IMG/VR virus record: IMGVR_UViG_2698536647_000004
Location: 1-16,655 of that record
Length of the DNA stretch: 16,655 bases
From: a virus
Taxonomy: Duplodnaviria; Heunggongvirae; Uroviricota; Caudoviricetes
Reading direction: 5' to 3' (one strand)
Under the pieces are notes generated by a model that saw nothing but the letters and a program-made list of their open reading frames with translations, was not told the origin of the DNA and made no database searches. Positions 1 through 16,655 of this stretch are shown here, piece by piece. The first letter of the stretch is position 1. Every line of letters begins with the position of its first letter. Made by a program: the position numbers and the translations under genes.

Positions 1-233
1 TCCATGTGCCACGGGCAAAGATCGGAAGGGTTACGCCAGTACCAGCGCAGCCGTTTTTCCATTTCAGGCGCATAACGCTGAACCCAGCGGTAAATCGTGG
101 AGTGATCGACATTCACTCCGCGTTCAGCCAGCATCTCCTGCAGCTCACGGTAACTGATGCCGTATTTGCAGTACCAGCGTACGGCCCACAGAATGATGTC
201 ACGCTGAAAATGCCGGCCTTTGAATGGGTTCAT
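1..233 (-). CDS. tnpA: IS26 transposase, N-terminal 77 codons (truncated by window edge)
   Basis: ATG at 233-231 (minus); the frame runs open to position 1. The translation matches the IS26 transposase N-terminus from memory. Confidence 0.9.
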   Translation of the reverse strand, partial: MNPFKGRHFQRDIILWAVRWYCKYGISYRELQEMLAERGVNVDHSTIYRWVQRYAPEMEKRLRWYWRNPSDLCPWHM

Positions 234-296
234 GTGCAGCTCCATCAGCAAAAGGGGATGATAAGTTTATCACCACCGACTATTTGCAACAGTGCC
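1..296 (-). mobile_element. IS26 (IS6 family), left end only; element continues beyond the window start
   Basis: Minus strand of 283-296 reads GGCACTGTTGCAAA, the 14-bp IS26 terminal inverted repeat, followed by the characteristic leader and the tnpA start MNPFKGRHFQRDIILWAVRWYCKYGISYRELQEMLAERGVNVDHSTIYRWVQRYAPEMEKRLRWYWRNP, recalled from memory as IS26 Tnp26. Confidence 0.9.
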
Positions 297-1240
297 GTTT
301 GCCTTTCCTCATCATCGGTATTGGTCTTAGGAGCACGCAGATCGACTTTGATTTGCTCCAGCATCAGGGGCGGCACTTTCCCGCCATGCGCCTCGATGAA
401 TTCAGCTGCTTCCAGCACTGACCAGTTATTTTCACGCTTTCGTTCGTATGCCAGCTTAACAATGCCAGCTTGCCCCATAGACAAAGCGTGCTTTTCCGCC
501 TCCCGGCTTTCTTTTCGATAGTTATTCCGGATGCTGTAAATGGTGTTGATCAGACTGCTTATCTGCGCGGAACAGCTGTTTAGCATGCTCGCGATACGGT
601 ATTCAGGCGGAGTACCTTCATCATCGTCTTTTTGCTGATCGCGCATTTCCTGCACCAGGCGAATACACGTATCCCTGGCGTTCTCCAGCATAAGGAGATG
701 AGAAAGAGACTTTTCAAGAAGAGTGGTTTCCAGAACATCGGCCCCGGACCGACGCAACATAGCGCGCGCGGCCTTCCGCGCTTCAACGTTATCTATCAGG
801 TAATCGCCAGCTTCGAATTCAAAGCGTTCACCATCATCATCCAGGGTGTCGCGTTCCAGGCGATCACGTAAGGTACGGTGGGCGCGGGTGATCACGTCAT
901 GATCATCAGAACGATCATTTATGCGCTTATTTTGGCGCTTAGCGTTCTCGACTGCGGCTCTGACAACAGCATTAACTCTTTGTTTTTCAGCTATTTCAGC
1001 CACAATATGATCACCTGCACGTTGATCATTAGCGTGATCAATGATCATGCTTTTTAGTGGTTTCCTGACAGGCTTATTTGGCTTGCGGCTGTCCGCTGTC
1101 CTGGTGTCTTCTTTGAAGGCACGGAGATAACGACGTGCGGTATTAGGGTTAAGATTAAACTCGGCGGCATACTGTGCGATGGTGTAACCACCATCCCGCG
1201 CCAGGCGAGCAAAATTCTTCTTGTGATCGTCCCAGGTCAC
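245..1240 (-). CDS. pacA: P1 pacA-like terminase small subunit, 3' end interrupted by IS26; native codons 1240..297 (about 315 aa), last 16 codons of the ORF are read from the IS26 terminus
   Basis: GTG start at 1240 preceded by GGAAG (5-nt spacer) and an in-frame TAA. N-terminal HTH-like segment [24 protein letters not shown] pac-like TGATCA hexamer cluster lies inside the 5' third of the gene, as described for P1 pacA. The ORF tail [16 protein letters not shown] is encoded by the IS26 inverted repeat. Assignment rests on the pac site and context, not on sequence recall. Confidence 0.55.
862..1047. other. pac: pac-like packaging site: two clusters of TGATCA / TGATCG hexamers (each containing a GATC Dam site)
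   Basis: Hexamers on the plus strand: CGATCA 862-867, TGATCA 889-894, TGATCA 900-905, CGATCA 913-918, then TGATCA 1008-1013, 1023-1028, 1035-1040, 1042-1047. This is 4 + 4 hexamers separated by about 90 bp. P1 pac is described as 4 + 3 TGATCA/G hexamers flanking the cleavage region inside pacA. Confidence 0.6.
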
Positions 1241-1325
1241 TTATGCTTCCTTTCGTAAAAACTCTTTTTGACGCGAGGGTAACGAAAGTCACATGTCAAA
1301 AGGCCCGGAACGGGCAAGCAATCAA

Positions 1326-1778
1326 TCAGATACGTGCGGATGTGGCATTACCGTAATAACGGTGCTGACGGGCCACCTTATTGAAAAGTTGACGCGCCAT
1401 TACCCAAGGCTGGTGCTCCCGGCGTTCCTTTTCGTCCTGCGTCATATAGAGTTCGTTCTGGAGTTTTTCATCAAACCGGCGCGGAGCGCGGCTACGGCGA
1501 AAGAATTCAGGATTCAGAGAGTGGATCTGAAATCTACGTGGGCGTGTACTGTCATCAATCAAAACAGACGAATACTTAGACACAGCGATAGCCTTTAAGC
1601 GCAGATAAACATCGCGCTTATCGACATCCAGATGCGGGTATTCCTTTTCAAGAATTGCTGCGAGTTCTTTCGCTGATAGAAGAGATTTAGTGCGGATCAT
1701 GTAATCCGCAATCTCGTACGATGTTATTCGTGAGTGATTTATTTCCATGAAGTGGCGTCCCTGCCAGTTAAGTAACAT
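1326..1778 (-). CDS. Hypothetical 150-aa protein, positionally equivalent to P1 lpa (late promoter activator, gene 10)
   Basis: ORF with ATG at 1778 preceded by AGGTGA. It lies directly upstream of the pacA-like gene and directly downstream of a C1-operator-like motif plus a candidate promoter (TTGCTA, 16 bp, TATTAT on the minus strand, about 1824-1851). I do not recall the Lpa sequence, so the call is by position and size only. Confidence 0.4.
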   Translation of the reverse strand: MLLNWQGRHFMEINHSRITSYEIADYMIRTKSLLSAKELAAILEKEYPHLDVDKRDVYLRLKAIAVSKYSSVLIDDSTRPRRFQIHSLNPEFFRRSRAPRRFDEKLQNELYMTQDEKERREHQPWVMARQLFNKVARQHRYYGNATSARI

Positions 1779-1848
1779 CCTGTCACCTACTGATTAGCCC
1801 ATGTCAACTAATCAACGTGGAATATAATACCCTCGATTAAAGAAATAG

Positions 1849-1865
1849 CAACACATTAGAGCAAT
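1849..1865 (-). promoter_or_regulatory. C1-repressor-operator-like 17-mer ATTGCTCTAATGTGTTG (13/17 to the consensus ATTGCTCTAATAAATTT as I recall it)
   Basis: Read on the minus strand directly after the stop of the DUF968-like gene and upstream of the lpa-like ORF. P1 gene 10 is known to be C1-controlled. Confidence 0.5.
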
Positions 1866-1866
1866 T

Positions 1867-2898
1867 TTATCTAACGCTCGACGAATGACTTGTGATAACG
1901 CCGACTCCAAGCGCGTAATCAAAGAACAATCGTTGATGCATCGCCAGCCTGCCGTGTGTTTTCTCCCAATTATCGCGGTCACGCTCAATATCACGCTGGC
2001 ATGACTGGCACAGAGGAATAGCATAAATGTCATGCGCGCATAATCGACTATGACGAACTATATAAGGCGTAATGTGAGCGCCAGCTCCCGCCGCTCCACA
2101 CCCACAGCATGGACGGGAAGCAACAAAGTCCATGTACTCAGGTAATTTTAGCGATTGCAGTTTTGGTATTTTGAAATGCTCGGAGTCAACATCCACAGGG
2201 CATACTTTTGCACGCATCGGCGCAGCGCGTTCTTCCATCATCTGAACATATGCTGTAGCGCGATCGTCATACGGGCGAATATCCGCCTCTTTCAGAGGTC
2301 CGCTATCCTGCGTTGCGGCTTTCATCTTATTTATTGATATACGGCAAACTTCTTCCGGCATCAGGTGCATCATGTTGCGCATGAAAGCCCACCAGCACAG
2401 TTCCTGAATACTTAAATCATGGCTATCTGAAAGGCCCATTTCCTGACGGGCGACATCCAGTATCCAGTTAACGCGATTATTATGCAGCGTTTCTTTCAGC
2501 TCATTAAAACCACGCATCCGGTAATGGTTATCGTGATGCCAGCACAGCAACACCGCGCTATTGTCTCGTTCTGCGTGGACAATATGGTTGTCACACCAGC
2601 TACGATCTGCGGCCTGGCATTGCCCCTCTTTCCTGCGCAACCACGCCACCAGCGCGTCAATTCCACCAATACGGCGAAACAGTTCATCGCTGTTAAAAAA
2701 CGGCTGCAACGCCTCATTTGTTGCCATAGTTTGCTCGGAAACAACGAGGCCGTCGTCCATGTGCTCGATTAACTCACGCGGCACCGGCTCCATAATAAAT
2801 TTACGGCCAGCCTCCACCAGCTTTCTGACTTCCTGATCCACTTTGAATGTGGCGACGCCAAGCTCTTTTTGTACAAAGGGAGTAATTACGGCTTTCAC
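1867..2898 (-). CDS. DUF968-like prophage protein (343 aa) with a C-terminal Cys/His cluster; positionally like P1 pdcA
   Basis: GTG start at 2898 preceded by AAGGTG. The C-terminus carries CCGCG...AHITPY...[15 protein letters not shown], a putative zinc-binding or HNH-like motif. Resemblance to the DUF968 family (e.g. E. coli YdfU) is by recall. Confidence 0.55.
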
Positions 2899-2925
2899 AT
2901 CACACCTTTCATCACTGATTGGGCT

Positions 2926-3105
2926 TTATCTGCTGCCCGGCATTCTCTGTTTAAGCACAACCATTTCCTGACGGCATAACACAGCAATAGCGGTCCTGGC
3001 ACCAATTTGCTTACCAACCAGGTATTGCTTTACCTTGCGGCGACTCACGCCATCAAGAAGCATCTTTAACGCTTCACGGGACAATTTGTTGTATTTGCGT
3101 GCCAT
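2926..3105 (-). CDS. Small basic protein (59 aa) apparently translationally coupled to doc; positionally like P1 pdcB
   Basis: ATG at 3105 lies 4 nt after the doc stop with GGAG 7 nt upstream. Translation MARKYNKLSREALKMLLDGVSRRKVKQYLVGKQIGARTAIAVLCRQEMVVLKQRMPGSR. The longer ORF to 3126 would overlap doc. Confidence 0.45.
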   Translation of the reverse strand: MARKYNKLSREALKMLLDGVSRRKVKQYLVGKQIGARTAIAVLCRQEMVVLKQRMPGSR

Positions 3106-3109
3106 TAAT

Positions 3110-3490
3110 CTACTCCGCAGAACCATACAATCTACGTAACGTGTCGGCGACAGAAGATACAGATATCTCTCCGGTCGCAGCCCCTACGGTAAGGTCTGCC
3201 AGTTCAGGTGAATCAAATACCTGCACCCCGTTACGGCGTAGAAATAACAGCGCACTGTTTAGCGCGGTACGCTTATTGGCATCATTGAATATATGCCCTC
3301 TCGCTGTAGCCACCAGGTAGGTGGCGGAGACTTCGAAAAGGTCGGTGATCTCTTCGTAGGCAACTCTGGCCTGAACTCTCCCGATAATGGCCTCTGCCCT
3401 ACCCGGATCTGACATTCCCGGCAGGCCGCCGTAGCGGTTTATATTCGCATCATGAAGCGCAATAAGTTCTTCCGGTGATATATGCCTCAT
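3110..3490 (-). CDS. doc: Doc toxin (Fic/Doc family kinase) of the phd-doc addiction module
   Basis: 126 aa starting [16 protein letters not shown], with the Fic/Doc motif HIFNDANKR. Closely resembles P1 Doc from memory. Its start overlaps the phd stop (TAATG). Confidence 0.95.
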
Positions 3491-3711
3491 TATCGGTTAA
3501 CCAGTTCCTTGTTGGTGGAGTCCAGGGTGTCAAACAGGGATGCAAATTCAGCATCCAGCGCCGCTTTTTTGTAGGCTTCGAAAGTAGCCTTGCTGACAAT
3601 TACTGCTGGCTCACGGCCTCTGCGGGTGATTTCAACCTCTTCCCCGGCCTCAACATTGTTGAGCACTTCAGAAAGGTTGCCGCGCGCGGTACGGAAGTTA
3701 ATGGATTGCAT
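3490..3711 (-). CDS. phd: Phd antitoxin (prevent-host-death)
   Basis: 73 aa, [49 protein letters not shown]..., matching P1 Phd from memory. RBS GAGGT upstream of the ATG at 3711. Confidence 0.95.
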
Positions 3712-3760
3712 AAATACCTCGTGTACTCGTTATGTGTACACAATTATAAACTTCACAGGC
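3712..3760 (-). promoter_or_regulatory. phd-doc promoter with palindromic operator half-sites
   Basis: On the minus strand a perfect TATAAT (plus 3743-3748) is followed by the palindrome TGTGTACACA (3733-3742) and GAGTACAC (3721-3729). The P1 phd-doc operon is autoregulated through palindromic operator sites overlapping its promoter. Confidence 0.6.
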
Positions 3761-3887
3761 ATAAAGCACCAGCACTTTGCGGCTTAACAAACCTCTAGGC
3801 AGGTCATTCGTAGCCTAATGTCCGAACTGCTAAAGCATCCAAGTTGCTGTAGAATCACCGCCAATTACATAAGCCTGAAATAAGTGG

Positions 3888-5450
3888 ATGAAAATGACAA
3901 GTATTCAACAACGTGCAGAGCTTCATCGTCAAATCTGGCAAATTGCTAACGATGTCAGGGGTTCGGTCGATGGATGGGATTTTAAGCAATACGTTCTGGG
4001 CGCACTTTTCTACCGTTTTATCAGCGAAAATTTTTCCAGCTATATTGAAGCCGGTGATGACAGTATCTGTTATGCGAAACTGGATGACAGCGTAATTACT
4101 GATGACATTAAAGACGATGCCATCAAAACTAAAGGCTACTTCATCTACCCCAGTCAGCTTTTCTGCAACGTAGCGGCGAAAGCAAATACCAATGACAGAC
4201 TGAATGCAGATTTAAACAGCATCTTCGTTGCTATCGAAAGTTCTGCTTACGGTTATCCTTCAGAAGCTGACATCAAAGGTTTGTTTGCTGATTTCGATAC
4301 CACCAGTAACCGCCTGGGTAACACCGTTAAGGATAAAAATGCCCGCCTGGCTGCGGTTCTGAAAGGGGTTGAAGGGTTAAAACTTGGTGACTTCAACGAA
4401 CATCAGATTGACCTGTTCGGTGATGCCTATGAGTTCCTGATCTCTAACTATGCGGCAAATGCCGGTAAGTCAGGCGGCGAGTTCTTTACACCGCAGCACG
4501 TCTCTAAGCTGATTGCACAACTGGCTATGCACGGGCAGACCAACGTTAACAAAATCTACGACCCGGCAGCGGGTTCCGGCTCACTGTTGTTGCAGGCGAA
4601 AAAACAGTTTGATAACCACATCATCGAAGAAGGCTTTTTCGGTCAGGAAATCAACCATACGACCTATAACCTGGCGCGTATGAACATGTTTTTGCACAAT
4701 ATCAACTACGACAAGTTTGATATCAAGCTGGGTAATACACTGACTGAGCCGCACTTCAGAGATGAAAAACCGTTTGATGCCATCGTTTCTAACCCGCCGT
4801 ATTCGGTGAAATGGATTGGCAGCGATGACCCGACGCTGATTAACGATGAACGTTTTGCCCCGGCTGGCGTTCTGGCCCCCAAATCCAAAGCTGACTTTGC
4901 GTTTGTATTACATGCGCTGAACTATCTTTCGGCCAAAGGTCGCGCTGCGATTGTCTGCTTCCCGGGCATTTTTTACCGTGGCGGCGCGGAGCAGAAAATC
5001 CGTCAGTATCTGGTCGATAATAACTATGTCGAAACCGTAATTTCACTGGCTCCGAACCTGTTCTTTGGCACCACCATTGCCGTAAACATTCTGGTTCTGT
5101 CTAAACATAAAACGGATACCAACGTTCAGTTTATTGACGCCAGCGAACTGTTCAAAAAAGAGACTAACAACAATATCCTGACCGATGCCCATATCGAACA
5201 GATTATGCAGGTATTTGCCAGCAAGGAAGATGTTGCTCATCTGGCGAAATCTGTTGCGTTTGAGACTGTTGTCGCGAATGACTATAACCTGTCGGTGAGC
5301 AGCTATGTGGAAGCGAAAGATACTCGCGAAATTATCGATATCGCTGAGCTGAATGCTGAGCTGAAAACCACGGTCAGCAAAATCGACCAGTTGCGCAAAG
5401 ATATTGATGCGATTGTGGCTGAAATTGAAGGCTGCGAGGTGCAGAAATGA
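3888..5450 (+). CDS. hsdM: Type I restriction-modification N6-adenine DNA methyltransferase subunit HsdM (type IC, EcoR124-like)
   Basis: 520 aa with the AdoMet motif [10 protein letters not shown] and the catalytic NPPY motif (SNPPYS). It overlaps hsdS by 4 nt (ATGA). Confidence 0.97.
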
Positions 5451-6652
5451 GCGAGATGAGTTATCTGGAAAAATTGCTGGATGGGGTTGAGGTTGAGTGG
5501 AAGACACTTGGGCAAACTTGCAAAATTGAAACAGGAAAGCTTAATGCGAATGCGGCTGTTGATGATGGAGAGTATATGTTCTTCACGACAGCCAAAGAGA
5601 CAAGCAAAATTGATAAATTCCGCTGGGATACAGAGGCATTGCTGATTGCAGGCAATGCGAATGTTGGTGAGGTGAAGCATTACATCGGCAAGTTTGAGGC
5701 TTATCAGCGCACCTATGTTCTGACAAATTTCGACGAAAATGTAAGTGTTAGATTTTTGTATTTTGTGCTTAGCCATAGCCTGAAGAAATATCTCGAGGAA
5801 AGAACAAATAGCGCGGCAATGACATATATCGTGCTATCAACCTTAGAGAATTTCCCTATCCCCATCCCCTGCCCGGATAATCCGGAAAAATCCCTTGCCA
5901 TCCAGTCTGAAATCGTTCGGATTCTGGATAAATTTACTGCACTTACCGCTGAGCTTACCGCTGAGCTTAACATGCGTAAAAAACAGTACAACTACTATCG
6001 CGACCAGTTGTTGAGTTTTAAAGATGGTGAGGTTGAGTGGAAGACTTTGGGGGAAATTGGAGATTTTACATATGGATATGCAGCCAAAGCCATGGATTCA
6101 GGAGATGCCCGTTTCGTGAGAATTACTGACATAAATAAAGACGGGAAGCTATCGAAAGAAAACCCAATGTACGTTGAATTAAATGAGGAAAATGAGAAAT
6201 ATACCTTAGACAAAAATGATTTACTCATGGCAAGAACTGGGGCAACCTTTGGTAAAACAATGATTTTTGAAGAAGATTATCCAGCAGTATACGCTGGTTT
6301 TTTAATAAAGTTGAACCTAAATAAAACGATTATTAATGCCAAATATTACTGGCACTTTGCACAAAGTGATTTTTTTTGGGAACAGGCTAATAAATTAGTA
6401 TCTGGTGGTGGGCAACCACAGTTTAATGCTAATGCACTGAAACAAGTCAGAGTACCTATTCCATACCCATCTCACCCTCAAAAATCTTTAGACGAACAGG
6501 GGCGTATTGTGGATATTCTGGATAAGTTTGATGCAATCGCAGCTTCCATCACCGAAGGTCTTCCGCGTGAAATCGAGTTGCGCCAGAAACAATACGAATA
6601 CTACCGTGATTTACTGTTCAGTTTCCCGAAACCTGAAACTGCCAGTAATTAA
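5447..6652 (+). CDS. hsdS: Type I restriction-modification specificity subunit HsdS with two target-recognition domains
   Basis: 401 aa. Conserved central repeat region ([26 protein letters not shown]) and the matching C-terminal conserved region ([18 protein letters not shown]). The N-terminal motif VEVEWKTLG is repeated at the start of TRD2 (GEVEWKTLG). Confidence 0.95.
5944..5967 (+). repeat. Perfect 2 x 12-bp tandem repeat (TACCGCTGAGCT) encoding TAEL-TAEL in the HsdS central spacer region
   Basis: Direct read: 5944-5955 equals 5956-5967, preceded by a degenerate copy encoding TAL. In type IC systems the copy number of this repeat sets the spacer length of the recognition site (two copies in EcoR124I, three in EcoR124II, as I recall). 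Confidence 0.85.
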
Positions 6653-6679
6653 TTGATCATTGCTACCGATCGGACCACC

Positions 6680-6745
6680 TTAACACCCGGTCAGTATATA
6701 GACTATTTTTTACGCGCCGGAAGTCACCATTACCCCCCTTCCGGC
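6680..6745 (+). promoter_or_regulatory. Candidate hsdR promoter (TTAACA 6680-6685, TATATA 6695-6700 region) and a leader stem-loop (GCCGGAAG 6716-6723 / CTTCCGGC 6738-6745)
   Basis: Type IC hsdR is known to have its own promoter separate from hsdMS. The hexamers are weak; the 8-bp inverted repeat with a 14-nt loop is read directly from the sequence. Confidence 0.35.
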
Positions 6746-6773
6746 CCTTGCCAGACGGCACAAAGGATGCGCT

Positions 6774-9700
6774 ATGACTCATCAGACACACACCATTGCT
6801 GAATCCAATAACTTTATCGTTCTTGATAAGTACATCAAAGCTGAGCCAACAGGCGACAGCTACCAGAGCGAATCGGACCTGGAACGTGAACTGATTCAGG
6901 ACCTGCAAAATCAGGGTTATGAATTTATTTCCGTAAAATCACAGTCGGCAATGCTGTCCAATGTTCGGGAACAGCTTCAGAGCCTCAATGGTGTGATGTT
7001 TAATGACAGCGAGTGGCGGCGCTTCACGGAGCAGTATCTGGACAACCCCAGCGATGGTATTCTGGATAAAACCCGTAAAATCCATATCGACTATATCTGC
7101 GACTTTATTTTTGATGACGGGCGACTTGAGAACATCTATTTGATAGATAAAAAGAATCTCATGCGCAATAAGGTGCAGATTATCCAGCAGTTTGAACAGA
7201 CGGGTTCTCATGCTAACCGTTATGACGTCACGATCCTGGTTAATGGTTTACCGCTGGTGCAAATCGAACTAAAAAAACGCGGGGTGGCGATTCGTGAGGC
7301 TTTCAACCAGATACATCGTTACAGTAAAGAGAGTTTTAACAGCGAAAATTCCCTGTTTAAGTATCTGCAACTGTTTGTCATTTCTAACGGCACCGATACC
7401 CGTTATTTTGCCAACACGACAAAGCGCGATAAAAACAGTTTTGACTTCACCATGAATTGGGCGAAATCAGACAACACGCTGATTAAAGACCTCAAAGACT
7501 TTACCGCTACCTTTTTCCAGAAACATACTCTGCTGAATGTTCTGGTGAACTACAGCGTTTTTGACAGTAGTCAGACGCTACTGGTGATGCGACCGTACCA
7601 GATTGCCGCCACCGAGCGCATTCTGTGGAAAATTAAGAGTTCCTTTACAGCGAAGAACTGGTCAAAACCGGAAAGCGGTGGGTATATCTGGCACACTACC
7701 GGTTCTGGTAAAACCCTCACCAGCTTTAAAGCCGCGCGTCTGGCAACAGAGCTGGACTTTATTGATAAAGTCTTCTTTGTGGTCGACAGGAAAGACCTCG
7801 ATTACCAGACCATGAAGGAATATCAGCGTTTTTCGCCAGACAGCGTCAACGGCTCGGAAAATACCGCAGGCCTTAAACGAAATCTGGATAAGGACGATAA
7901 CAAAATTATCGTCACTACTATTCAGAAACTCAATAACCTGATGAAAGCAGAAAGCGACCTGCCTGTATATAATCAGCAAGTGGTGTTTATATTTGATGAA
8001 TGCCACCGCAGCCAGTTTGGAGAAGCGCAGAAAAACCTGAAGAAGAAATTCAAACGCTATTATCAGTTTGGTTTTACCGGCACACCTATTTTCCCGGAAA
8101 ACGCCTTAGGCTCAGAAACGACCGCCAGCGTATTTGGTCGTGAATTGCATTCGTATGTAATTACCGATGCGATTCGTGATGAAAAAGTGCTCAAATTCAA
8201 GGTGGACTACAACGATGTGCGGCCACAGTTTAAGTCTTTAGAGACAGAAACTGACGAGAAAAAACTAAGTGCGGCTGAAAATCAGCAGGCGTTTCTTCAT
8301 CCCATGCGTATACAGGAAATTACGCAATATATTCTGAATAACTTCCGCCAGAAGACGCACCGTACTTTCCCTGGCGCAAAAGGTTTTAATGCTATGTTGG
8401 CAGTGAGCAGCGTGGATGCTGCAAAAGCCTATTACGCGGCGTTTAAACGGTTACAAGAGGAAGCCGCTAATAAATCTGCAACTTATAAACCGCTGCGTGT
8501 TGCGACAATCTTCTCCTTTGCCGCTAATGAAGAACAAAATGCCATTGGTGAAATTTCCGATGAAACTTTTGATACCAGCGCAATGGACAGCAGTGCTAAA
8601 GAGTTTCTTGACGCTGCAATTCGTGAGTATAACAGCTATTTTAAAACTAACTTCAGCACCGACGGTAACGGTTTTCAGAACTACTATCGCGATTTAGCCC
8701 AACGGGTTAAAAATCAGGATATCGATCTGTTAATTGTCGTTGGGATGTTTTTAACCGGCTTCGACGCTCCAACATTGAACACGCTATTCGTCGATAAAAA
8801 CTTGCGTTTTCACGGCCTGATGCAGGCATTTTCCCGCACCAACCGCATTTATAACGCCACTAAAACCTTCGGTAACATTGTCACTTTTCGGGATCTGGAA
8901 CGCTCAACCATTGATGCCATAACGCTGTTTGGTGATAAAAATACCAAAAATGTGGTGTTAGAAAAGAGTTATGCAGAGTATATGGAAGGTTTTACTGATG
9001 CTGCCACCGGTGAAGCCAAACGCGGCTTTATGGCAGTAGTTTCAGAACTGGAACAACGGTTCCCTGACCCTGCCAGTATTGAAAGTGAAAAAGAGAAGAA
9101 AGACTTCGTTAAACTGTTTGGCGAATACCTGCGTGCCGAGAACATCCTGCAAAACTATGATGAATTTGCCACGCTAAAAGCCCTGCAACAAATCGATCTT
9201 AGCGATCCTGTTGCGGTAGAAAAATTCAAAGCAGAACATTATGTGGATGATGAAAAGTTCGCTGAATTGCAAACAATTCGTCTCCCTGCTGAACGCAAGA
9301 TTCAGGATTATCGTTCTGCCTATAACGATATTCGCGACTGGCAGCGCCGTGAGAAAGAAGCTGAGAAAAAAGAGAAATCAACCACTGACTGGGATGACGT
9401 GGTTTTTGAGGTCGATTTGCTGAAGTCTCAGGAAATAAACCTGGATTATATCCTTGGACTGATTTTCGAACACAACAGACAAAATAAAGGCAAGGGCGAA
9501 ATGATCGAAGAGGTCAAACGCTTAATTCGTTCAAGCCTGGGGAACCGGGCGAAAGAGGGCCTGATGGTCGATTTTATTCAGCAAACGAACCTGGATGATT
9601 TACCAGACAAAGCCAGTATCATTGAGGCATTCTTTACGTTTGCTCAACGCGAACAGCAACGTGAAGCAGAAGCATTGATAAAAGAAGAAAATCTCAATGA

Positions 9701-9890
9701 AGATGCAGCAAAACGCTATATTCGCACGTCTTTAAAACGCGAATACGCCACCGAAAATGGCACAGAATTAAACGAAACATTACCAAAACTTAGTCCGTTG
9801 AATCCGCAATATAAAACGAAAAAACAGGCAGTTTTCCAGAAAATCGTCTCGTTTATTGAGAAGTTTAAAGGCGTAGGCGGAAAAATATAG
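6774..9890 (+). CDS. hsdR: Type I restriction enzyme R subunit HsdR (type IC; same 1038-aa length I recall for EcoR124I HsdR)
   Basis: PD-(D/E)xK-type nuclease motif in the N-terminal domain ([19 protein letters not shown]), helicase Walker A TGSGKT and a DECH box ([10 protein letters not shown]). RBS AAGGATG before the ATG at 6774. Confidence 0.97.
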
Positions 9891-9903
9891 CCCAATTCGT
9901 GTT

Positions 9904-9937
9904 TTTCTTGCGGGTTCTTAATTAAACCCGCAAGAGC
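9904..9937. other. Stable stem-loop (stem of at least 9 bp, CTTGCGGGT / ACCCGCAAG) just after the hsdR stop; function unknown
   Basis: Direct read. The T-run is on the 5' side of the stem on the plus strand, so it is not a canonical intrinsic terminator in either orientation. Confidence 0.5.
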
Positions 9938-9969
9938 TCGTGGGGTTCCAAATGGCTAATATACTCCCC

Positions 9970-10056
9970 TTACCCATGCGCGACGATGCCGCCAAAAGTG
10001 ATAGAGAACAGCCAGAAATAGATCGCGGCCATAATGATTTTGAATGCCGTGTTCAT
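9970..10056 (-). CDS. Candidate small hydrophobic protein (28 aa, MNTAFKIIMAAIYFWLFSITFGGIVAHG)
   Basis: ATG at 10056 with AGGAG 8 nt upstream. The whole peptide looks like a single transmembrane helix. Not in the supplied ORF track (too short). It lies between a C1-operator-like site and the end of hsdR. Confidence 0.3.
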   Translation of the reverse strand: MNTAFKIIMAAIYFWLFSITFGGIVAHG

Positions 10057-10084
10057 ATTTTCAGCTCCTGTGATTGATTGGATA

Positions 10085-10115
10085 CATGCCGCGCCTTGCG
10101 GCATGTTTTTATTTT
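10085..10115 (+). terminator. Rho-independent terminator, plus orientation
   Basis: GC-rich 8-bp stem CATGCCGC (10085-10092) / GCGGCATG (10098-10105) with loop GCCTT, followed by TTTTTATTTT. It is the first canonical terminator downstream of hsdR. Confidence 0.7.
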
Positions 10116-10138
10116 CACTTTCTCTGTTTTAAAAATCA

Positions 10139-10155
10139 AGATTTATTAGAGCAAT
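10139..10155 (-). promoter_or_regulatory. C1-repressor-operator-like 17-mer ATTGCTCTAATAAATCT (16/17 to the recalled consensus)
   Basis: Read on the minus strand immediately after the stop of the HAD-like gene. The weak promoter-like hexamers TTGATT and GAAAAT follow it. Confidence 0.6.
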
Positions 10156-10661
10156 TATTGTTGATGAAGAAGCGCATTTTCGTACTCTCTGACCATTAAC
10201 GTAAGCACGCCGTGATGCCTGAAAACACGCGCTACTTCAATCTTATCTTCCAGCGCGAACGCAATTTTACTTAGACCAATTTTCTTAAGGAGATCAATCT
10301 TTGCTGGACCATCATTTCTGTCATCGGTGGCAGGACGCATAGATAGCAAAGGCTCAGCCCCATTTGTTACGTGCTTACGCAACCAGGCTCGTGTTTTATC
10401 CCTTGCGATCTCACAGCGCCCGGTTACAAACCAGACCGTGTAAACGTTAAATAACTGGCGCACCATATCAATAACTGGAGTGATGGGAGTATCGGTGTCA
10501 CAGGCGAGATTAAACTCGTTCCAGTCCTTTGTTACTGCACCTTTACCTGGTGGCGGAAGCAAATGCAGTCTGTCTTCAGTTGCCTCTGATATTGTTCCAT
10601 CAATATCGACTATGACGATATACGGACGTTCCTGGTGTGCGTGTTTATTGAAAATACTCAA
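10155..10661 (-). CDS. HAD-superfamily phosphatase-like protein (168 aa)
   Basis: TTG start at 10661 preceded by a strong AGGAGG (4-5 nt spacer) and an in-frame upstream stop. HAD motif I DIDGT (VIVDIDGTIS). Possibly equivalent to a P1 phosphatase gene, but I cannot confirm that from memory. Confidence 0.6.
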   Translation of the reverse strand: MSIFNKHAHQERPYIVIVDIDGTISEATEDRLHLLPPPGKGAVTKDWNEFNLACDTDTPITPVIDMVRQLFNVYTVWFVTGRCEIARDKTRAWLRKHVTNGAEPLLSMRPATDDRNDGPAKIDLLKKIGLSKIAFALEDKIEVARVFRHHGVLTLMVREYENALLHQQ

Positions 10662-10732
10662 ATGCCCTCCTCATTGGACGAAAAAATGCTGGTGGGCGCA
10701 CTCCACCAACATTAAAAGTGACACTGTAACTA

Positions 10733-11995
10733 TCAGCGAACGTAAATAGTGCCGCCGTTCTCTTTTTCCCATGCATCGCTACGTGCATAGCAAACATCGA
10801 GAAGTCTTCTTGCCGCTGTTTCCTCTAAACCCAATTCGACAACCAACTGTTCATGACGGCGGGTAACCACATCAAACAACGTATGCAGCCCTTTAGTTGC
10901 CAGTTCATCAATGAATTCCGGTTCGAACGGTAGCTCTGCATCTGCCAACATAACCTCTTGCGCCCACTCGACACGGCGGACCAGTTCCGGGCGGCGGCTT
11001 TCCATCTCTTTACAGATCAATTCATGGAAGAACTCTACCCAACCTTCCGGCTGGAACTCGCGGAAAATGGCCAACGGCTGGAAGTTTGGCATCAACCATT
11101 CGTTGATACGGATATCAATGGCATAGCCCATGTCGCAGCAGAACTGATAAGCAAAGTCCAGCTTAGAAACGATATAAGGACGCTCGTTATTGAACTCTTT
11201 AGGCGATGAGATCCCATAAGCCAGGAGGCGCGGGAAGAATGAGATTTGCCCTAACGTCGGATGAAGTTTGCTTGCAGGGAAACGGCGCTCAGTAATGCCA
11301 TACATTTCCTTCTTGAGCGTCGCAAATTTGGCATTCTCATTAACCAGCGCGGTAACCTCTGCTTTTTTATTAGCAAATGCCACGCGCGCTTCGCTTGCAT
11401 CTTTAATAGTTTTTTTGAGCTGTTGGTTAAGGTCGGCGACCTGTTTACGCAGTTCCTGCCGCTCGCTTTTAGCTTTGTTATAGCGTTTCTCAAGGTTAAA
11501 AGGATCAAGTTTCATGATCTCTTTATATTGAGATTTTAGCGTTGAAATCTGTGAGTTCCGCAGTTCAACCATCGCGGTCATTTCATTGAGTTTTGTTTCC
11601 AGCTCAATGCTTATACGTTCGGCATTATCAGCACGCTGGTTGGCGTCATGCGTCGCATCGTCGATCGCATCCTGTTGCTGGCGTTTCAAATGTTCAATTT
11701 GCAGCTGAAGCTCTTCAATTTCTTTACCCTTCAGACCGAGATCCAACTGCATATTTTCAGCTGCATCTACCAGGGAGTTATGGCTATCAGCTTCTGCGTT
11801 ATAAACATCAATAAGCTGTGCGTGAAGCATCTCCGCTGACTGAACCGCATTATCAAAAAAACGTGCTGTGAGGTCATCACAACTAACGCGGCGTTGCGCG
11901 GCCCGGATGTTCTGGATAATGGCCGGGATACCGGCATTCAGGACATCAGGGATAGATACATTTTCGATTGATTGGTTTTGTGCTGAAGTGCTCAT
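10733..11995 (-). CDS. Hypothetical 420-aa protein: long N-terminal coiled-coil region plus a C-terminal domain of unknown function
   Basis: ATG at 11995. Residues about 90-230 are heptad-rich (EIEELQLQIEHLKRQQQ...ELRKQVADLNQQLKK). I do not recognise any catalytic motif in the C-terminal 190 aa. Confidence 0.7.
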   Translation of the reverse strand: MSTSAQNQSIENVSIPDVLNAGIPAIIQNIRAAQRRVSCDDLTARFFDNAVQSAEMLHAQLIDVYNAEADSHNSLVDAAENMQLDLGLKGKEIEELQLQIEHLKRQQQDAIDDATHDANQRADNAERISIELETKLNEMTAMVELRNSQISTLKSQYKEIMKLDPFNLEKRYNKAKSERQELRKQVADLNQQLKKTIKDASEARVAFANKKAEVTALVNENAKFATLKKEMYGITERRFPASKLHPTLGQISFFPRLLAYGISSPKEFNNERPYIVSKLDFAYQFCCDMGYAIDIRINEWLMPNFQPLAIFREFQPEGWVEFFHELICKEMESRRPELVRRVEWAQEVMLADAELPFEPEFIDELATKGLHTLFDVVTRRHEQLVVELGLEETAARRLLDVCYARSDAWEKENGGTIYVR

Positions 11996-11996
11996 T

Positions 11997-12215
11997 TCAA
12001 AGTTCCGTATTAGCTTGTGCTTCGGTCATTTTTCCTAAGTATGAAGGAGGAAGGACTACGCAATTTGTATCCAGTCCCTCACCTATGGCAGCCTGTAAAA
12101 TTCTGGCTAAGGTGAGTCTCTTGTTGCGATACCTGGTGATGACATGCCTGATACCGCCGGTCGGCGTAACAAAGGCGATCAGCCAGTAGTGATATTTCCG
12201 TCGGAATGGCCACAT
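11997..12215 (-). CDS. Hypothetical small protein (72 aa if started at the ATG at 12215), stop 1 nt before the ATG of the 420-aa gene
   Basis: The ORF track gives 11997..12272, but that 5' extension overlaps the minus-strand terminator. The ATG at 12215 has AGGGTG upstream. The tight spacing to the next gene suggests coupling. Confidence 0.4.
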   Translation of the reverse strand: MWPFRRKYHYWLIAFVTPTGGIRHVITRYRNKRLTLARILQAAIGEGLDTNCVVLPPSYLGKMTEAQANTEL

Positions 12216-12229
12216 AGTGCACCCTGTAG

Positions 12230-12246
12230 ATTGCTCTAATAAAAAA
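12230..12246 (+). promoter_or_regulatory. C1-repressor-operator-like 17-mer ATTGCTCTAATAAAAAA (14/17), plus orientation
   Basis: Direct read. It forms an inverted pair with the site at 12279-12295. Confidence 0.5.
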
Positions 12247-12267
12247 CGTGATGAGTGTACATCACGT
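12237..12267 (-). terminator. Rho-independent terminator, minus orientation, ending the glycosyltransferase-like operon
   Basis: Stem ACGTGATG (12246-12253) / CATCACGT (12260-12267) with a 6-nt loop. On the minus strand the stem is followed by TTTTTTATT. Confidence 0.7.
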
Positions 12268-12278
12268 TTCAAAAATAT

Positions 12279-12295
12279 GGAATTATTAGAGCAAT
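12279..12295 (-). promoter_or_regulatory. C1-repressor-operator-like 17-mer ATTGCTCTAATAATTCC (14/17), minus orientation
   Basis: Read on the minus strand directly after the stop of the glycosyltransferase-like gene. The following 30 nt closely resemble the sequence after the site at 10139-10155. Confidence 0.55.
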
Positions 12296-12296
12296 A

Positions 12297-12998
12297 TTAT
12301 TCTGATTCTCGCTCAAAAAACGAGCTGATAAGGGGAAGCCAATCCTCTGACACTTCGCGAGGTCGCGGTTTGCCGTGGAAAAAGATTATTCGGCAGTCTT
12401 TTGGTAATGCCCCATTCCCCCTGGAGTAACGCGCGCTCGCATATTTCGAACCAGGTTCCACAACATCGGCCTTGTAACTTACAAACCATCCTGGATACAG
12501 ATCCTGAAATGCTGGTGTATCATCGCCCATAACCTTTCGTAAGAACCCCTGGTCACCCCAGCACTCAGTAGTGACACAACGAGAAATCCAACCTTCCGGA
12601 TCTTGCCAGAATGAACTCCAGATATGCGCTTTAACACTATTTGGTATCCACAGGGCACCGCTGCCACGATATTGTGGATGGTAAAAATCCCTAAGCATGG
12701 TGAAGCTGGTTGGTGGATGCTCTAGGATTGGGCGTATATCACCGGCAATAACCGTGTCCAAATCCAGATAGAACAGATCATCGGTTATATCCGGTCGGAA
12801 CAACTCGATTTTCGCCCACCAGCCACGGCACTTTTGCCACTGGTTGATCAATGGGACAACTTTGACGCCAGGTACATGTAAACGCTTCAGGTCTGTCAGG
12901 CAAATAATTTCATAGCCTTTTGGCAGTTGATTAACCAGCCACTGCACATCGGAAGCGTTATAGTCACCACCAGAGCGAAAAACTAAAGCAATCTTCAT
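12297..12998 (-). CDS. Hypothetical protein (233 aa), possibly a glycosyltransferase (DxD-like LDLD motif)
   Basis: ATG at 12998 overlaps the stop of the upstream phosphatase gene (ATGA). The N-terminus [13 protein letters not shown] and [12 protein letters not shown] suggest a nucleotide-sugar transferase fold, but this is weak. Confidence 0.45.
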
Positions 12999-13687
12999 GC
13001 TGCACCATCACCTTTCACTTTCATCAATGTCAGGTTTCCGCAAAATACGGCACCAGTGTCGATATACTGCTGATTCCAGAATGTCTTCGGGCTTTTCACC
13101 GGAGTGTGACCAAAGATAAAACGATCTGCGCCCGAAATTTCGCCACCAATATCATCCATCGAATCACTGATACGCTCGCGCGCCCAGACAACGTTGAAAA
13201 GCGGCACCTCCTTACCGAATTGGTATTCATTATCCGGATAGTCGGCATGGGCTATAACGATAGTTTCTTGCCCGGTGTTCAACTCAATGATATAGGGCAG
13301 ACGCTTTACCAGCTCCACCAGCGCCCAGGCTAATATTTCCTGATCAGTGTCCAGCATGAAGAACCATTGTCCGCCATTCATTAGCCAGTTATTCACGTTG
13401 CCATCTGGACTTAACGCATCAATCATCAGCCGCTCATGGTTCCCCATCACTGCCCTGAACCAGGGCATCTGCAATAGTTCCAGACATTCGACATTTTCAG
13501 TACCGCGATCGATAAGGTCGCCGACCGATATCAGTAAATCCTGCGCCGGGTCAAAATCCACACGATGGAGTTCGGACATCAGTCTGGTGTAGCAACCATG
13601 CAGATCACCAACAACCCAGACATTCCTGTATTTGGTACCGTCGATACGGTGATAAATTGTGGGTGCCATCATGTATTCTTCAGCCAT
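12995..13687 (-). CDS. Ser/Thr protein phosphatase of the lambda PPase (calcineurin-like metallophosphoesterase) family; likely P1 ppp-like
   Basis: Motifs GDLHGC, GDLIDRG, GNHE and a C-terminal GHTP. Strongly resembles the lambda phosphatase (nin region ORF221) from memory. The true start may be the ATG at 13669, which overlaps the upstream stop by 1 nt. Confidence 0.85.
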
Positions 13688-14295
13688 TCTTTAAGAGTCA
13701 TCTGTGGAATGCCTCCCATTTTCCCGCATGAAACAACGTCAATCTGTTCACGCGCAGACTGGAATAACAAAGGCAGGTGACTTAGATTTTTTGGCGTGCC
13801 GCCGGAGTGAACGCGTGGTTCTTGTGTAGCGTCAACGCCCACCAGGGCGACATGTTTGAATCCGATATGGAAAGCCAGGTTCAGAGCGCCATATGCACTA
13901 TTGCCGCTGGCAATTTCATTCTCATCTTCGCAAAGTCCGAAATGTGCGGACCAACGCCACGCCCACCACTCGGGAGAATTCGTATTTTTTGGCTCCATGC
14001 CACGTTCAGCCACACGACGGAAGCACAGAACGCCGTCTCTGACTTCACGTTCTTTAACATCGGGTAGTGCCATGCAATAACAAACACCACGGCGACGGCG
14101 GCCACGACCAACGCGCCGCATATTGTCTGGCGATGGATCAAGTGTGAAAAAATAAGAAGCGCGGTTCAGCCAGTCGATGGCCCCATTGACCGCTATAATC
14201 GGCACTCCGCGCGGCGCAACAAAGTTTGCGGCGCTTGGGCCACTGCCGACGATAATAACGCGATCACTGCCTCTAAATTTATTCTTGGGAAACAT
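13669..14295 (-). CDS. MptE-like / DUF115-like protein, paralog A (208 aa)
   Basis: Motifs VIIVGSGPS ... IIAVNGAID ... [12 protein letters not shown] ... VALVGVDAT resemble the Rossmann-like core of PF01973 (MptE/Maf family), by recall. It is a paralog of the next gene. Confidence 0.45.
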
Positions 14296-14855
14296 TGAAT
14301 TGCACAGCTCCTACTTGCATTCAAAATATGTAAATCTGCGTGTTTTTTGCGGGTATCCAGGAACTGCTGTTGCCATTTTGAAATAGACACCTGCGTTGGA
14401 TTCCGTAGGGCTTGAGGGTGTGCTCCATGCCAATGAAGGCCGTTTTGCAGAGAACAGTCATAGCCGACTAATACAACTACTTCAGCCCCTGATTCAGCCG
14501 CCAGACTGATAGTCTGCGCGCCGCTATTAACCCCTTCAGCCGGTCCACAATATCGCCTGTACTCCAACGAAAATGATTTCGCCGCCGCCAGGTTGGCTGT
14601 CACTTTGCGGAATCTCCCTCCCGGTATGGTGGATCCGTATTGCTTCCACCATGACAAATCACCGGCGTATAAGGCATAAATGTCATCGAACATCTGCCAG
14701 GAATTGTTAACCGCGATGATTGAACAGCCAGTTTTTTCTATAGCAGCACAGTCCTCACGAGTGAGTGACGGACCGCTACCGACACAAAAAACAGTCCTAG
14801 TCGCCCTGGGTGGTATGTTCATTCTCAGCTGCAAATTCAGCCTCCAGGCGAGCAT
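14193..14855 (-). CDS. MptE-like / DUF115-like protein, paralog B (about 208-220 aa)
   Basis: Motifs VFCVGSGPS ... IIAVNNSWQ ... SGAQTISLAA ... VVLVGYDCS. Start uncertain: ATG 14855, TTG 14834 (GGAGG 6 nt upstream) or ATG 14822. The 3' end overlaps paralog A by 103 nt in another frame. Confidence 0.45.
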   Translation of the reverse strand: MLAWRLNLQLRMNIPPRATRTVFCVGSGPSLTREDCAAIEKTGCSIIAVNNSWQMFDDIYALYAGDLSWWKQYGSTIPGGRFRKVTANLAAAKSFSLEYRRYCGPAEGVNSGAQTISLAAESGAEVVVLVGYDCSLQNGLHWHGAHPQALRNPTQVSISKWQQQFLDTRKKHADLHILNASRSCAIQCFPRINLEAVIALLSSAVAQAPQTLLRRAECRL

Positions 14856-14994
14856 TCATTTCAGCGATTACCGGGTCCACTACAGCATCTGCTTCCTGTT
14901 CATTACGCGGCATGATCGATGCCAGCGATTCATAATTAGCCTTGGATGACACAATTATTCTCCCGATGTTAATGTGCGCTATATCAAAGAGCAC
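14797..14994 (-). CDS. Questionable small ORF (65 aa, or 38 aa from an internal ATG)
   Basis: ORF track only. There is no convincing RBS at either candidate start. Confidence 0.25.
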   Translation of the reverse strand: MLFDIAHINIGRIIVSSKANYESLASIMPRNEQEADAVVDPVIAEMNARLEAEFAAENEHTTQGD

Positions 14995-15018
14995 ATATGC
15001 ACTAATTAATTTATTATT

Positions 15019-15381
15019 TTAAGCAGCATACAACCACTTGTCGCCGTTCAATACATGCTCAATAGCCTCACCCTTTTTAAGGCTTATGTATTCCAGGATG
15101 GCGGTTATCGCTTGTTCTGCACCATACGCAAGAACGACGTAGTAACCTTCCTCTCTAAGCCTGCGCATCCAGGCGATCTGCTCTTTCGTCGGGGCTTTAC
15201 CATTTGGTTCTTTAAGCTCAATTCGCATGCCGTGATAAATACCGCATGCTTTATCGAGACTCATGTCCGGATAACCTTTTTTCTGCCCTTCAGCCTTCAT
15301 TTTCCCGGCGGTTGCTTTTGAACGTTTCCCTCTGAAGTGGTTTACTGAATTTGGCCACCTGAACAGAGGTGATATGCTCAC
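15019..15381 (-). pseudogene. VRR-NUC domain nuclease gene, 5' end replaced by the IS911 terminus (native part 15019..15332)
   Basis: Core KGYPDMSL ... IELKEPNGKAPTKEQIAWMRRLREEGYYVVLAYG fits the VRR-NUC pattern (G.PD ... E.K ... Q). The first 16 codons of the ORF are encoded by IS911 inverted-repeat sequence, and the usual N-terminal portion of the domain is missing. Confidence 0.65.
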
Positions 15382-15667
15382 CTCAGAACAACACAGGTGC
15401 CATAATGAAAAAAAGAAATTTCAGCGCAGAGTTTAAACGCGAATCCGCTCAACTGGTCGTTGACCAGAATTACACCGTGGCAGATGCAGCCAGCGCTATG
15501 GATGTCGGCCTTTCCACAATGACGCGATGGGTGAAACAATTACGTGATGAGCGGCAGGGAAAAACACCAAAAGCCTCCCCCATTACCCCGGAACAAATTG
15601 AAATCCGTGAGCTCAGGAAAAAGCTACAACGTATTGAAATGGAAAATGAAATATTAAAAAAGGCTAC
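15333..15667 (+). mobile_element. IS911 (IS3 family) left-end fragment: left inverted repeat plus a truncated orfA (ATG 15405), interrupted by IS30
   Basis: Begins TGAAGTGG...; orf[89 protein letters not shown] matches IS911 OrfA (InsN) from memory. The frameshift heptamer A AAA AAG is at about 15655-15661, and IS30 sequence starts at 15668. Confidence 0.85.
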
Positions 15668-16655
15668 TGTAGATTCAATCTGTCAATGCAACACCCCTTT
15701 CAATTATCTCTTTCGGTGTTTTGAACTTCAGTGTCTTTCTCGGTCTGTTGTTTAGCTGAGCAGCAACCAGATCTAGTTCATGTTGAGTATATTGGGCAAG
15801 ACATGTCTTTTTAGGAAAGTACTGCCGAATTAGCCCATTTGTATTCTCATTTGTTCCCCGCTGCCAAGGACTCTGAGGATCGCAGAAGTAAACTTTAACG
15901 CCGGTGCTGACAGTAAATTCTAGATGTCTGGCCAGTTCCATTCCTCTGTCCCATGTCAGTGATTTTCTGAGTTCTGACGGTAAACTCAGGAATTTGTCGG
16001 TAAGAGCCTGATTTACTGAGACAGAATCTTTGCCCCTGAGTCTAAGGATGATCGTATAACGTGATTTTCGGTCTACAAGTGTGTCTATATGAGAGTTTTT
16101 TGTACCTGAGACTAAATCGCCCTCCCAATGCCCCAGAGAGCGTCTGTTATCGATATTTCGGGAACGTTCGTGAATTGGTGTTCCGTTCACTATGTTAATC
16201 GTACCTCTTTCGCCTTTGCGGGTATGACGCCTGCCATGGCGAAGGCTATGCGACCGTCGCAGATGCTGTATATTCAGGTGGTGTAGCGCTTCACGGCTAC
16301 GAAAGTACAGCGTTTTATAAATTGTCTCAGGTGATATTCGCAGCGTTTTTTGACGTGGTTTTGTTCGCCTTAACCATCCTGATATTTGCTCTGGAGACCA
16401 TTTCATCTCCAGCTTTTCCAGAACAAGCTTTCGCAATGGTAAATTTTGATCCAGTAAGCACGGTTTTGGCCTTTTCGCCATTCTGTTGGCTCGGTTATTA
16501 GCATCAACAGCTTTGTAATAGCGTCTGCCCCGATTACGCTGAACTTCACGTGAGATCGTCGAAGGACTGCGATTCAGCGCAGTAGCTATCGCACGAATGC
16601 TCATTTTGGCTGACAAACCAGCTCGTATCTCCTCGCGCTCAGACAGTGTCAGGTG
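15668..16655 (-). mobile_element. IS30, partial (right end and most of the transposase; continues beyond the window end)
   Basis: The terminus TGTAGATTCAATCTGTCAATGCAACA begins at 15668. The transposase frame is open from 15675 to the window edge (...[30 protein letters not shown]...) and matches IS30 InsI from memory. Confidence 0.9.
15675..16655 (-). CDS. IS30 transposase, C-terminal approx 326 codons (5' end outside window)
   Basis: Stop TGA at 15677-15675 inside the inverted repeat. A DDE-type catalytic region is present. The ORF track begins at an internal TTG, but the frame stays open to 16655. Confidence 0.9.

Follow-up and report, generated by a model that had tools for sequence, protein, structure and literature searches.

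The window, the whole 16,655-nucleotide stretch of DNA analyzed here, carries an hsdMSR cassette located between phd/doc and the genes for a 3'-phosphatase and pmgS. On either side of the cassette, the DNA shared 97-98% identity with phages P1, P7 and SJ46 and with P1-like plasmids, for example pMCR_SCKP-LL83. The P1-like backbone covered positions 1-3800 and 9900-16655, with pacA, lpa and phd/doc on one side of the cassette and the 3'-phosphatase gene, pmgS and pphA on the other. By sequence comparison, the window is a P1-like phage-plasmid. The features of the cassette were as follows.

3888 to 5450, plus strand: hsdM, 520 amino acids (Pfam N6_Mtase and HsdM_N; EcoR124II M protein 7bst_D)
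5447 to 6652, plus strand: hsdS, type IC specificity subunit, 401 amino acids (two Pfam Methylase_S stretches; full-length match to 7bst_A)
5513 to 5857, plus strand: N-terminal target-recognition domain of HsdS, variable, approximate limits (alignment to EcoR124I HsdS, to which it is not similar)
5858 to 6061, plus strand: central conserved region of HsdS, residues 138-205, including the TAEL helix (alignment)
5942 to 5969, plus strand: perfect tandem repeat of CTTACCGCTGAG, 2.33 copies (sequence, Tandem Repeats Finder, shuffles and EcoR124II primers; PMC10644984)
6062 to 6457, plus strand: C-terminal target-recognition domain of HsdS, variable, approximate limits (alignment)
6458 to 6649, plus strand: C-terminal conserved region of HsdS, second helix of the antiparallel coiled coil (alignment; role of the helix, PMC3874165)
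6774 to 9890, plus strand: hsdR, 1038 amino acids (Pfam EcoR124_C, SWI2_SNF2 and HSDR_N; EcoR124 HsdR 2w00_A)

The literature puts the similarity of HsdM and HsdR within one type I family at more than about 70%. The window HsdR matched the EcoR124 HsdR (2w00_A) end to end (residues 1-1038, 2274 bits), and HsdM matched the EcoR124II M protein (7bst_D) in the same manner (residues 1-520, 1161 bits). HsdS, whose gene starts within the last four bases of hsdM, aligned over its full length with EcoR124I HsdS (7bst_A); the conserved regions were almost identical and the target-recognition domains divergent. Type IC enzymes characteristically have, in their central conserved region, four amino acids (TAEL, LEAT, SEAL or TSEL) repeated in tandem (PMC10030836; PMC3874165). 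The window thus has HsdM and HsdR close to the prototypes, two target-recognition domains set between family-specific conserved regions, and two TAEL units. On these alignments, the system is a member of the type IC (EcoR124) family with a different pair of recognition domains.

An identical hsdS was detected in 51 complete E. coli records and in 28 plasmid records, including those from Klebsiella, Salmonella and E. fergusonii. Elsewhere the same cassette was found within a chromosomal island, beside a gene for an AIDA/Ag43-type autotransporter, an antirestriction gene, a GTPase gene and then IS1. Among the 21 loci compared (L001-L021), hsdS was 100% identical at the DNA level while hsdM had about 70 and hsdR more than 100 differing sites, arranged in blocks. 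The invariant hsdS and the block-like differences in hsdM and hsdR indicate that the cassette (3888-9890) is a recombination mosaic around a fixed specificity gene.

The repeat in the center of hsdS reads ...ACTGCA CTTACCGCTGAG CTTACCGCTGAG CTTA ACATGCG..., and Tandem Repeats Finder reported the 12-bp unit CTTACCGCTGAG in 2.33 copies with 100% matches at 5942-5969. The earlier note had placed two exact 12-bp copies at 5944-5967, and both were found there by direct inspection and by Tandem Repeats Finder (TACCGCTGAGCT at 5944-5955 and again at 5956-5967). These coordinates hold for the DNA repeat; they are one base out of register with the codons, and the perfect tract is four bases longer. The codons for TAEL-TAEL occupy 5945-5968 (residues 167-174 of HsdS) and the tract is in frame. 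Its position between the two target-recognition domains, as the note had it, was borne out by the translation and by the alignment to EcoR124I HsdS. At an offset of 12 the self-match ran to 16 bases; among the other offsets between 3 and 30, the best in the window was 10. Since the largest self-match in 200 mononucleotide shuffles was 10 bases (mean of 6.6), the repeat is not a chance match. Two published primers for the deletion of one TAEL unit from EcoR124II (PMC10644984) matched the window exactly at 5937 and 5957, showing that this is the EcoR124 repeat at the level of DNA, beyond a shared peptide.

Other short tandems were present in the window. A second perfect 12-bp tandem, GCTGAGCTGAAT in 1.9 copies, was reported by Tandem Repeats Finder at 5343-5365, close to the 3' end of hsdM. 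This tandem translates to AELNAELK, within the C-terminal helix, and shares GCTGAGCT with the hsdS unit. Imperfect two-copy tandems at 917-941, 6505-6524, 8965-8984 and 9350-9372 had Tandem Repeats Finder scores of 31-39 and are probably chance matches.

The effect of TAEL copy number on type I specificity has been known since 1987-89. The units sit in the first of the two helices that link the recognition domains of type IC enzymes, and EcoR124I, with two units, recognizes GAAN6RTCG, whereas EcoR124II, with three, recognizes GAAN7RTCG (PMC3874165). Three units go with N7 spacers in EcoDXXI and EcoPrrI as well, and the spacers of engineered hybrids shifted as predicted (PMC3874165). The methylated bases lie 7 nt apart in EcoR124I and 8 nt apart in the three-unit enzymes (PMC12707154). 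The claim of the earlier note that one repeat gained or lost moves the EcoR124I/EcoR124II spacer between N6 and N7 is therefore the published rule (PMC3874165; PMC12707154). SMRT data from N. gonorrhoeae show N6 and N7 motifs that follow the number of LEAT units (PMC6789123), and the removal of one unit, which converts EcoR124II to EcoR124I, altered the set of phages that were restricted (PMC10644984). Changes in copy number have been ascribed to unequal crossing-over at the repeat (PMC3874165).

We infer that the link between copy number and spacer described in this literature extends to the window allele. The 12-bp unit encodes Thr-Ala-Glu-Leu in what would be the first of two long helices joining the DNA-reading domains of HsdS. 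The length of this helix would set the separation and the rotation of the two domains on the DNA, so that each TAEL unit gained or lost would shift the non-specific spacer by one base pair. With two copies, the window allele is expected to have an EcoR124I-like geometry with half-sites of its own. Measured from LDKF to RKKQY, the linker is 13 amino acids in the central helix and 17 amino acids in the C-terminal helix; a third unit would bring the helices to the same length. With identical units, replication slippage or unequal crossing-over would be expected to delete or add one from time to time. A one-copy form is predicted to read the same half-sites one base pair closer together. Type IC methylases have no preference for hemimethylated DNA, and the systems become established easily in naive hosts (PMC12707154), so a change of specificity may be survivable.

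Exact synthetic variants of the window HsdS were looked up among about 15 billion proteins. The one-copy protein (397 amino acids) was present, and the three-copy and four-copy versions were absent from this collection. Likewise, no three-copy or four-copy DNA of the window allele was detected in complete E. coli genomes or plasmids. The one-copy hsdS was found on 24 contigs, which come from no fewer than 10 samples in NCBI and Logan assemblies, and all 10 of the one-copy loci listed had a P1-like neighborhood and full-length hsdM, hsdS and hsdR. Over 14,359 aligned bp, one of them (L009, from ERR3469199) differed from the window by two mismatches and a single 12-bp gap. Further one-copy carriers include GCA_000460715.1 and the isolate of SRR14434347, and E. 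coli CRE1540 (plasmid NZ_CP019054.1) and AH25 are examples of two-copy carriers. The one-copy twin, L009 included, is thus a natural variant of a single hsdS allele that differs only in the number of 12-bp units, and the deletion has occurred naturally in the window allele and persists in intact operons. Assembly error was considered as the source of the one-copy contigs and rejected: the 16-base self-overlap is shorter than the usual assembly k-mers, and the NCBI and Logan assemblies, which are independent, together gave the form in at least 10 samples.

The one-copy form was found on at least five hsdM/hsdR/backbone haplotypes, of which at least four besides that of L009 were 1.5-2% divergent from the window. 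A four-gamete pattern was present among the one-copy backgrounds, with hsdS identical throughout and hsdM and hsdR mosaic. An identical hsdS over hsdM and hsdR that are several percent apart means that the one-copy form could have had a single origin and have spread by recombination. The deletion could be recurrent, or it could have happened once and then been spread by recombination; from the sequences, both histories fit the mosaic pattern. The two-copy form was far commoner (2,496 index blocks of the collection vs. 24 contigs for the one-copy form), and all full-length complete records of the window allele (51 from E. coli and 28 from plasmids) had two copies, which suggests that change is rare.

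The copy number was also surveyed across 5,426 complete E. coli genomes by the use of short queries with strict E-value limits that passed only full-length matches. Two copies were recorded in 595 records, about three copies in about 411, four or more in 42 and one copy in 5 of about 1,050. The maximum was five copies, seen in NC101 and on a strain S30 plasmid. Several pairs differed by a single unit. The L022 and L023 chromosomes of TUM18530 (two copies) and TUM18780 (three copies) differed by one other SNP in 12 kb and are, as judged from their sequences, a natural pair of the EcoR124I/II type. The complete genomes of these two strains, which have the same type IC allele, differed by 30 bp in length. 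AMSHJX01 (three copies) and Z1322HEC0001 (four copies) had no SNP in hsdS, and CUVET21-PYO5 and AB_24_S34 (four copies) differed from NC101 (five copies) by one unit. In a homologue (P0043), the tract encodes TAELAAEL, a point change that breaks the perfect repeat, and the rate of slippage should be lower in that allele. The literature searched yielded nothing usable on the methylome of the window allele, on P1-like plasmids with type I systems or on TUM18530 and TUM18780.

Loci with long tracts were mostly broken. Nine of the 10 inspected loci with four or five units (L024, L025 and L027-L034) had disrupted systems, in which hsdS was cut by ISEc45, IS1 or IS3, or hsdM was frameshifted, truncated or missing. 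In contrast, the eight three-unit controls (L035-L042) were all annotated intact and none was disrupted. The difference was significant by Fisher's exact test (p = 4e-4 counting loci and 0.015 counting lineages) in a small and partly clonal sample of 18 loci from the approximately 1,050 E. coli records. The lone undisrupted locus with four or more units, on pDAM_1 (L029), had an IS5 directly upstream of hsdM. Long tracts may be tolerated only after the system has died; alternatively, they may select for its inactivation. As general background, which carries no weight in this comparison, an enzyme with four units may have relaxed specificity.

Taken together, we consider it highly probable that the window carries the TAEL repeat of the EcoR124 family on a P1-like phage-plasmid, that its copy number sets the recognition spacer, and that a unit is occasionally lost or gained by slippage or unequal exchange between the identical copies. 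The identity of the system and of its repeat and the occurrence of natural variants are observations; slippage or unequal exchange as the source of the change and the low rate of change are inferred from the identity of the units and from the distribution of the variants. The earlier note regarded a change in copy number as plausible, and the one-copy twin of the window allele, with L009 nearly isogenic to the window, is such a change. It had also named invariance of copy number among relatives as the result that would count against a switch in specificity; instead, copy number varied, with the one-copy form on 24 contigs and the 2/3, 3/4 and 4/5 pairs in other alleles.

The main remaining alternative is that the one-copy derivative is an inactive enzyme or one of relaxed specificity, the helix being too short for both domains to dock, so that the deletion inactivates the system and does not retarget it. 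No characterized one-unit type IC enzyme was found in the literature searched, and the one-copy enzyme might be inactive or relaxed. The central linker of the one-copy form would be 9 amino acids against 17 in the partner helix, and the rarity of one-copy alleles among the E. coli records points in the same direction. However, the one-copy loci listed all keep full-length genes for the three subunits, the form persists on several backbones, and other one-unit alleles (P0118, P0119 and L026) also lie in operons annotated intact, a condition that contrasts with the broken state of most loci with four or more copies. We therefore regard loss of function or of stringency as unlikely, a minority prospect.

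The opposite possibility, that the one-copy form is a functional third specificity with a spacer one base pair shorter than that of EcoR124I-type enzymes and 6 nt between the methylated bases, is put forward tentatively, at somewhat less than even chances. This proposal would have the third specificity circulate on P1-like phage-plasmids, perhaps after more than one origin. Alongside it, copy number in the type IC systems of E. coli may be a recurrent mutational axis of one to five units, on which only the forms with one to three allow a live system. A restriction of live systems to one to three units would explain the disruption of nine of the 10 loci with four or more.

Two further alternatives find little room in the data. 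The repeat could be a programmed, high-frequency phase-variation (contingency) locus comparable to the simple-sequence tracts of Haemophilus and Neisseria restriction-modification genes, with both forms in every culture. A switching role has been proposed for in-frame repeats of hsdS (PMC7383803), and near-isogenic isolates one unit apart exist. Nevertheless, the tract offers just two units, with 16 self-homologous bases, the variant makes up a small fraction in population snapshots (24 contigs against 2,496 index blocks) and was seen in none of the 79 complete records, and no gain variant was present among the approximately 15 billion proteins, which makes a programmed switch very improbable. 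The repeat in the window is better read as a rare polymorphism due to slippage than as rapid phase variation. Equally improbable is that the two TAEL units are a fixed structural feature of the coiled coil, effectively stable in copy number in this lineage and without a role in switching: at least two perfect tetrapeptide xELx units occupied the TAEL position in 96 of 150 diverse HsdS representatives, which indicates that the periodicity is an old protein feature, and the complete records of the window allele were uniform in copy number, but the exact one-copy twin, present in 10 or more samples that include a near-isogenic match to the window, already largely refutes this explanation, and the three additional single-unit pairs in other alleles and the occurrence of all copy numbers from one to five within E. 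coli also stand against it.

The finding indicates that the gap-length mechanism of EcoR124 is at work in wild E. coli populations and on P1-like phage-plasmids, among them carriers of mcr-1 (for example, pMCR_SCKP-LL83). One slip of 12 bp would alter which incoming DNA is cut as well as the methylation pattern of the phage-plasmid itself. The one-copy forms and the association of four or more copies with broken systems provide cheap, testable predictions of the helix lengths that a type I enzyme tolerates. These lengths bear on how the coiled coil accommodates a change in register, which Loenen et al. flagged in their review as unresolved (PMC3874165).

The closest known systems are EcoR124I and EcoR124II (EcoR124/3) of plasmid R124, which have the same conserved regions of HsdS and the same 12-bp repeat DNA as the window, and an HsdM (520 amino acids) and an HsdR (1038 amino acids) that are nearly identical to those encoded in the window. 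EcoR124I, like the window allele, has two TAEL copies. Both target-recognition domains differ, so the half-sites of the window enzyme are not expected to be GAA or RTCG. The carriers differ as well: R124 for EcoR124, and for the window system a P1-like phage-plasmid or, in other places, a chromosomal island. The natural variant of the window allele has one copy, whereas that of the EcoR124 pair has three. EcoDXXI and EcoPrrI belong to the same type IC family and use the same TAEL device (PMC3874165; PMC12707154), with three units, the apparent optimum according to a review, compared to two in the window; the comparison with them covered the TAEL device. NgoAV of Neisseria gonorrhoeae is also a type IC system in which the number of tetrapeptides varies among isolates and tracks N6 vs. 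N7 methylation (PMC6789123); it differs from the window system in its organism, in its LEAT unit and in that a frameshift further downstream, by truncating HsdS, also affects its specificity. The device is textbook type I biology, and the finding therefore opens no new question. The phenomenon was already known, and the addition made here is a modest one: another allele, carried on a phage-plasmid, its natural one-copy derivative, and a census of one to five copies in E. coli.
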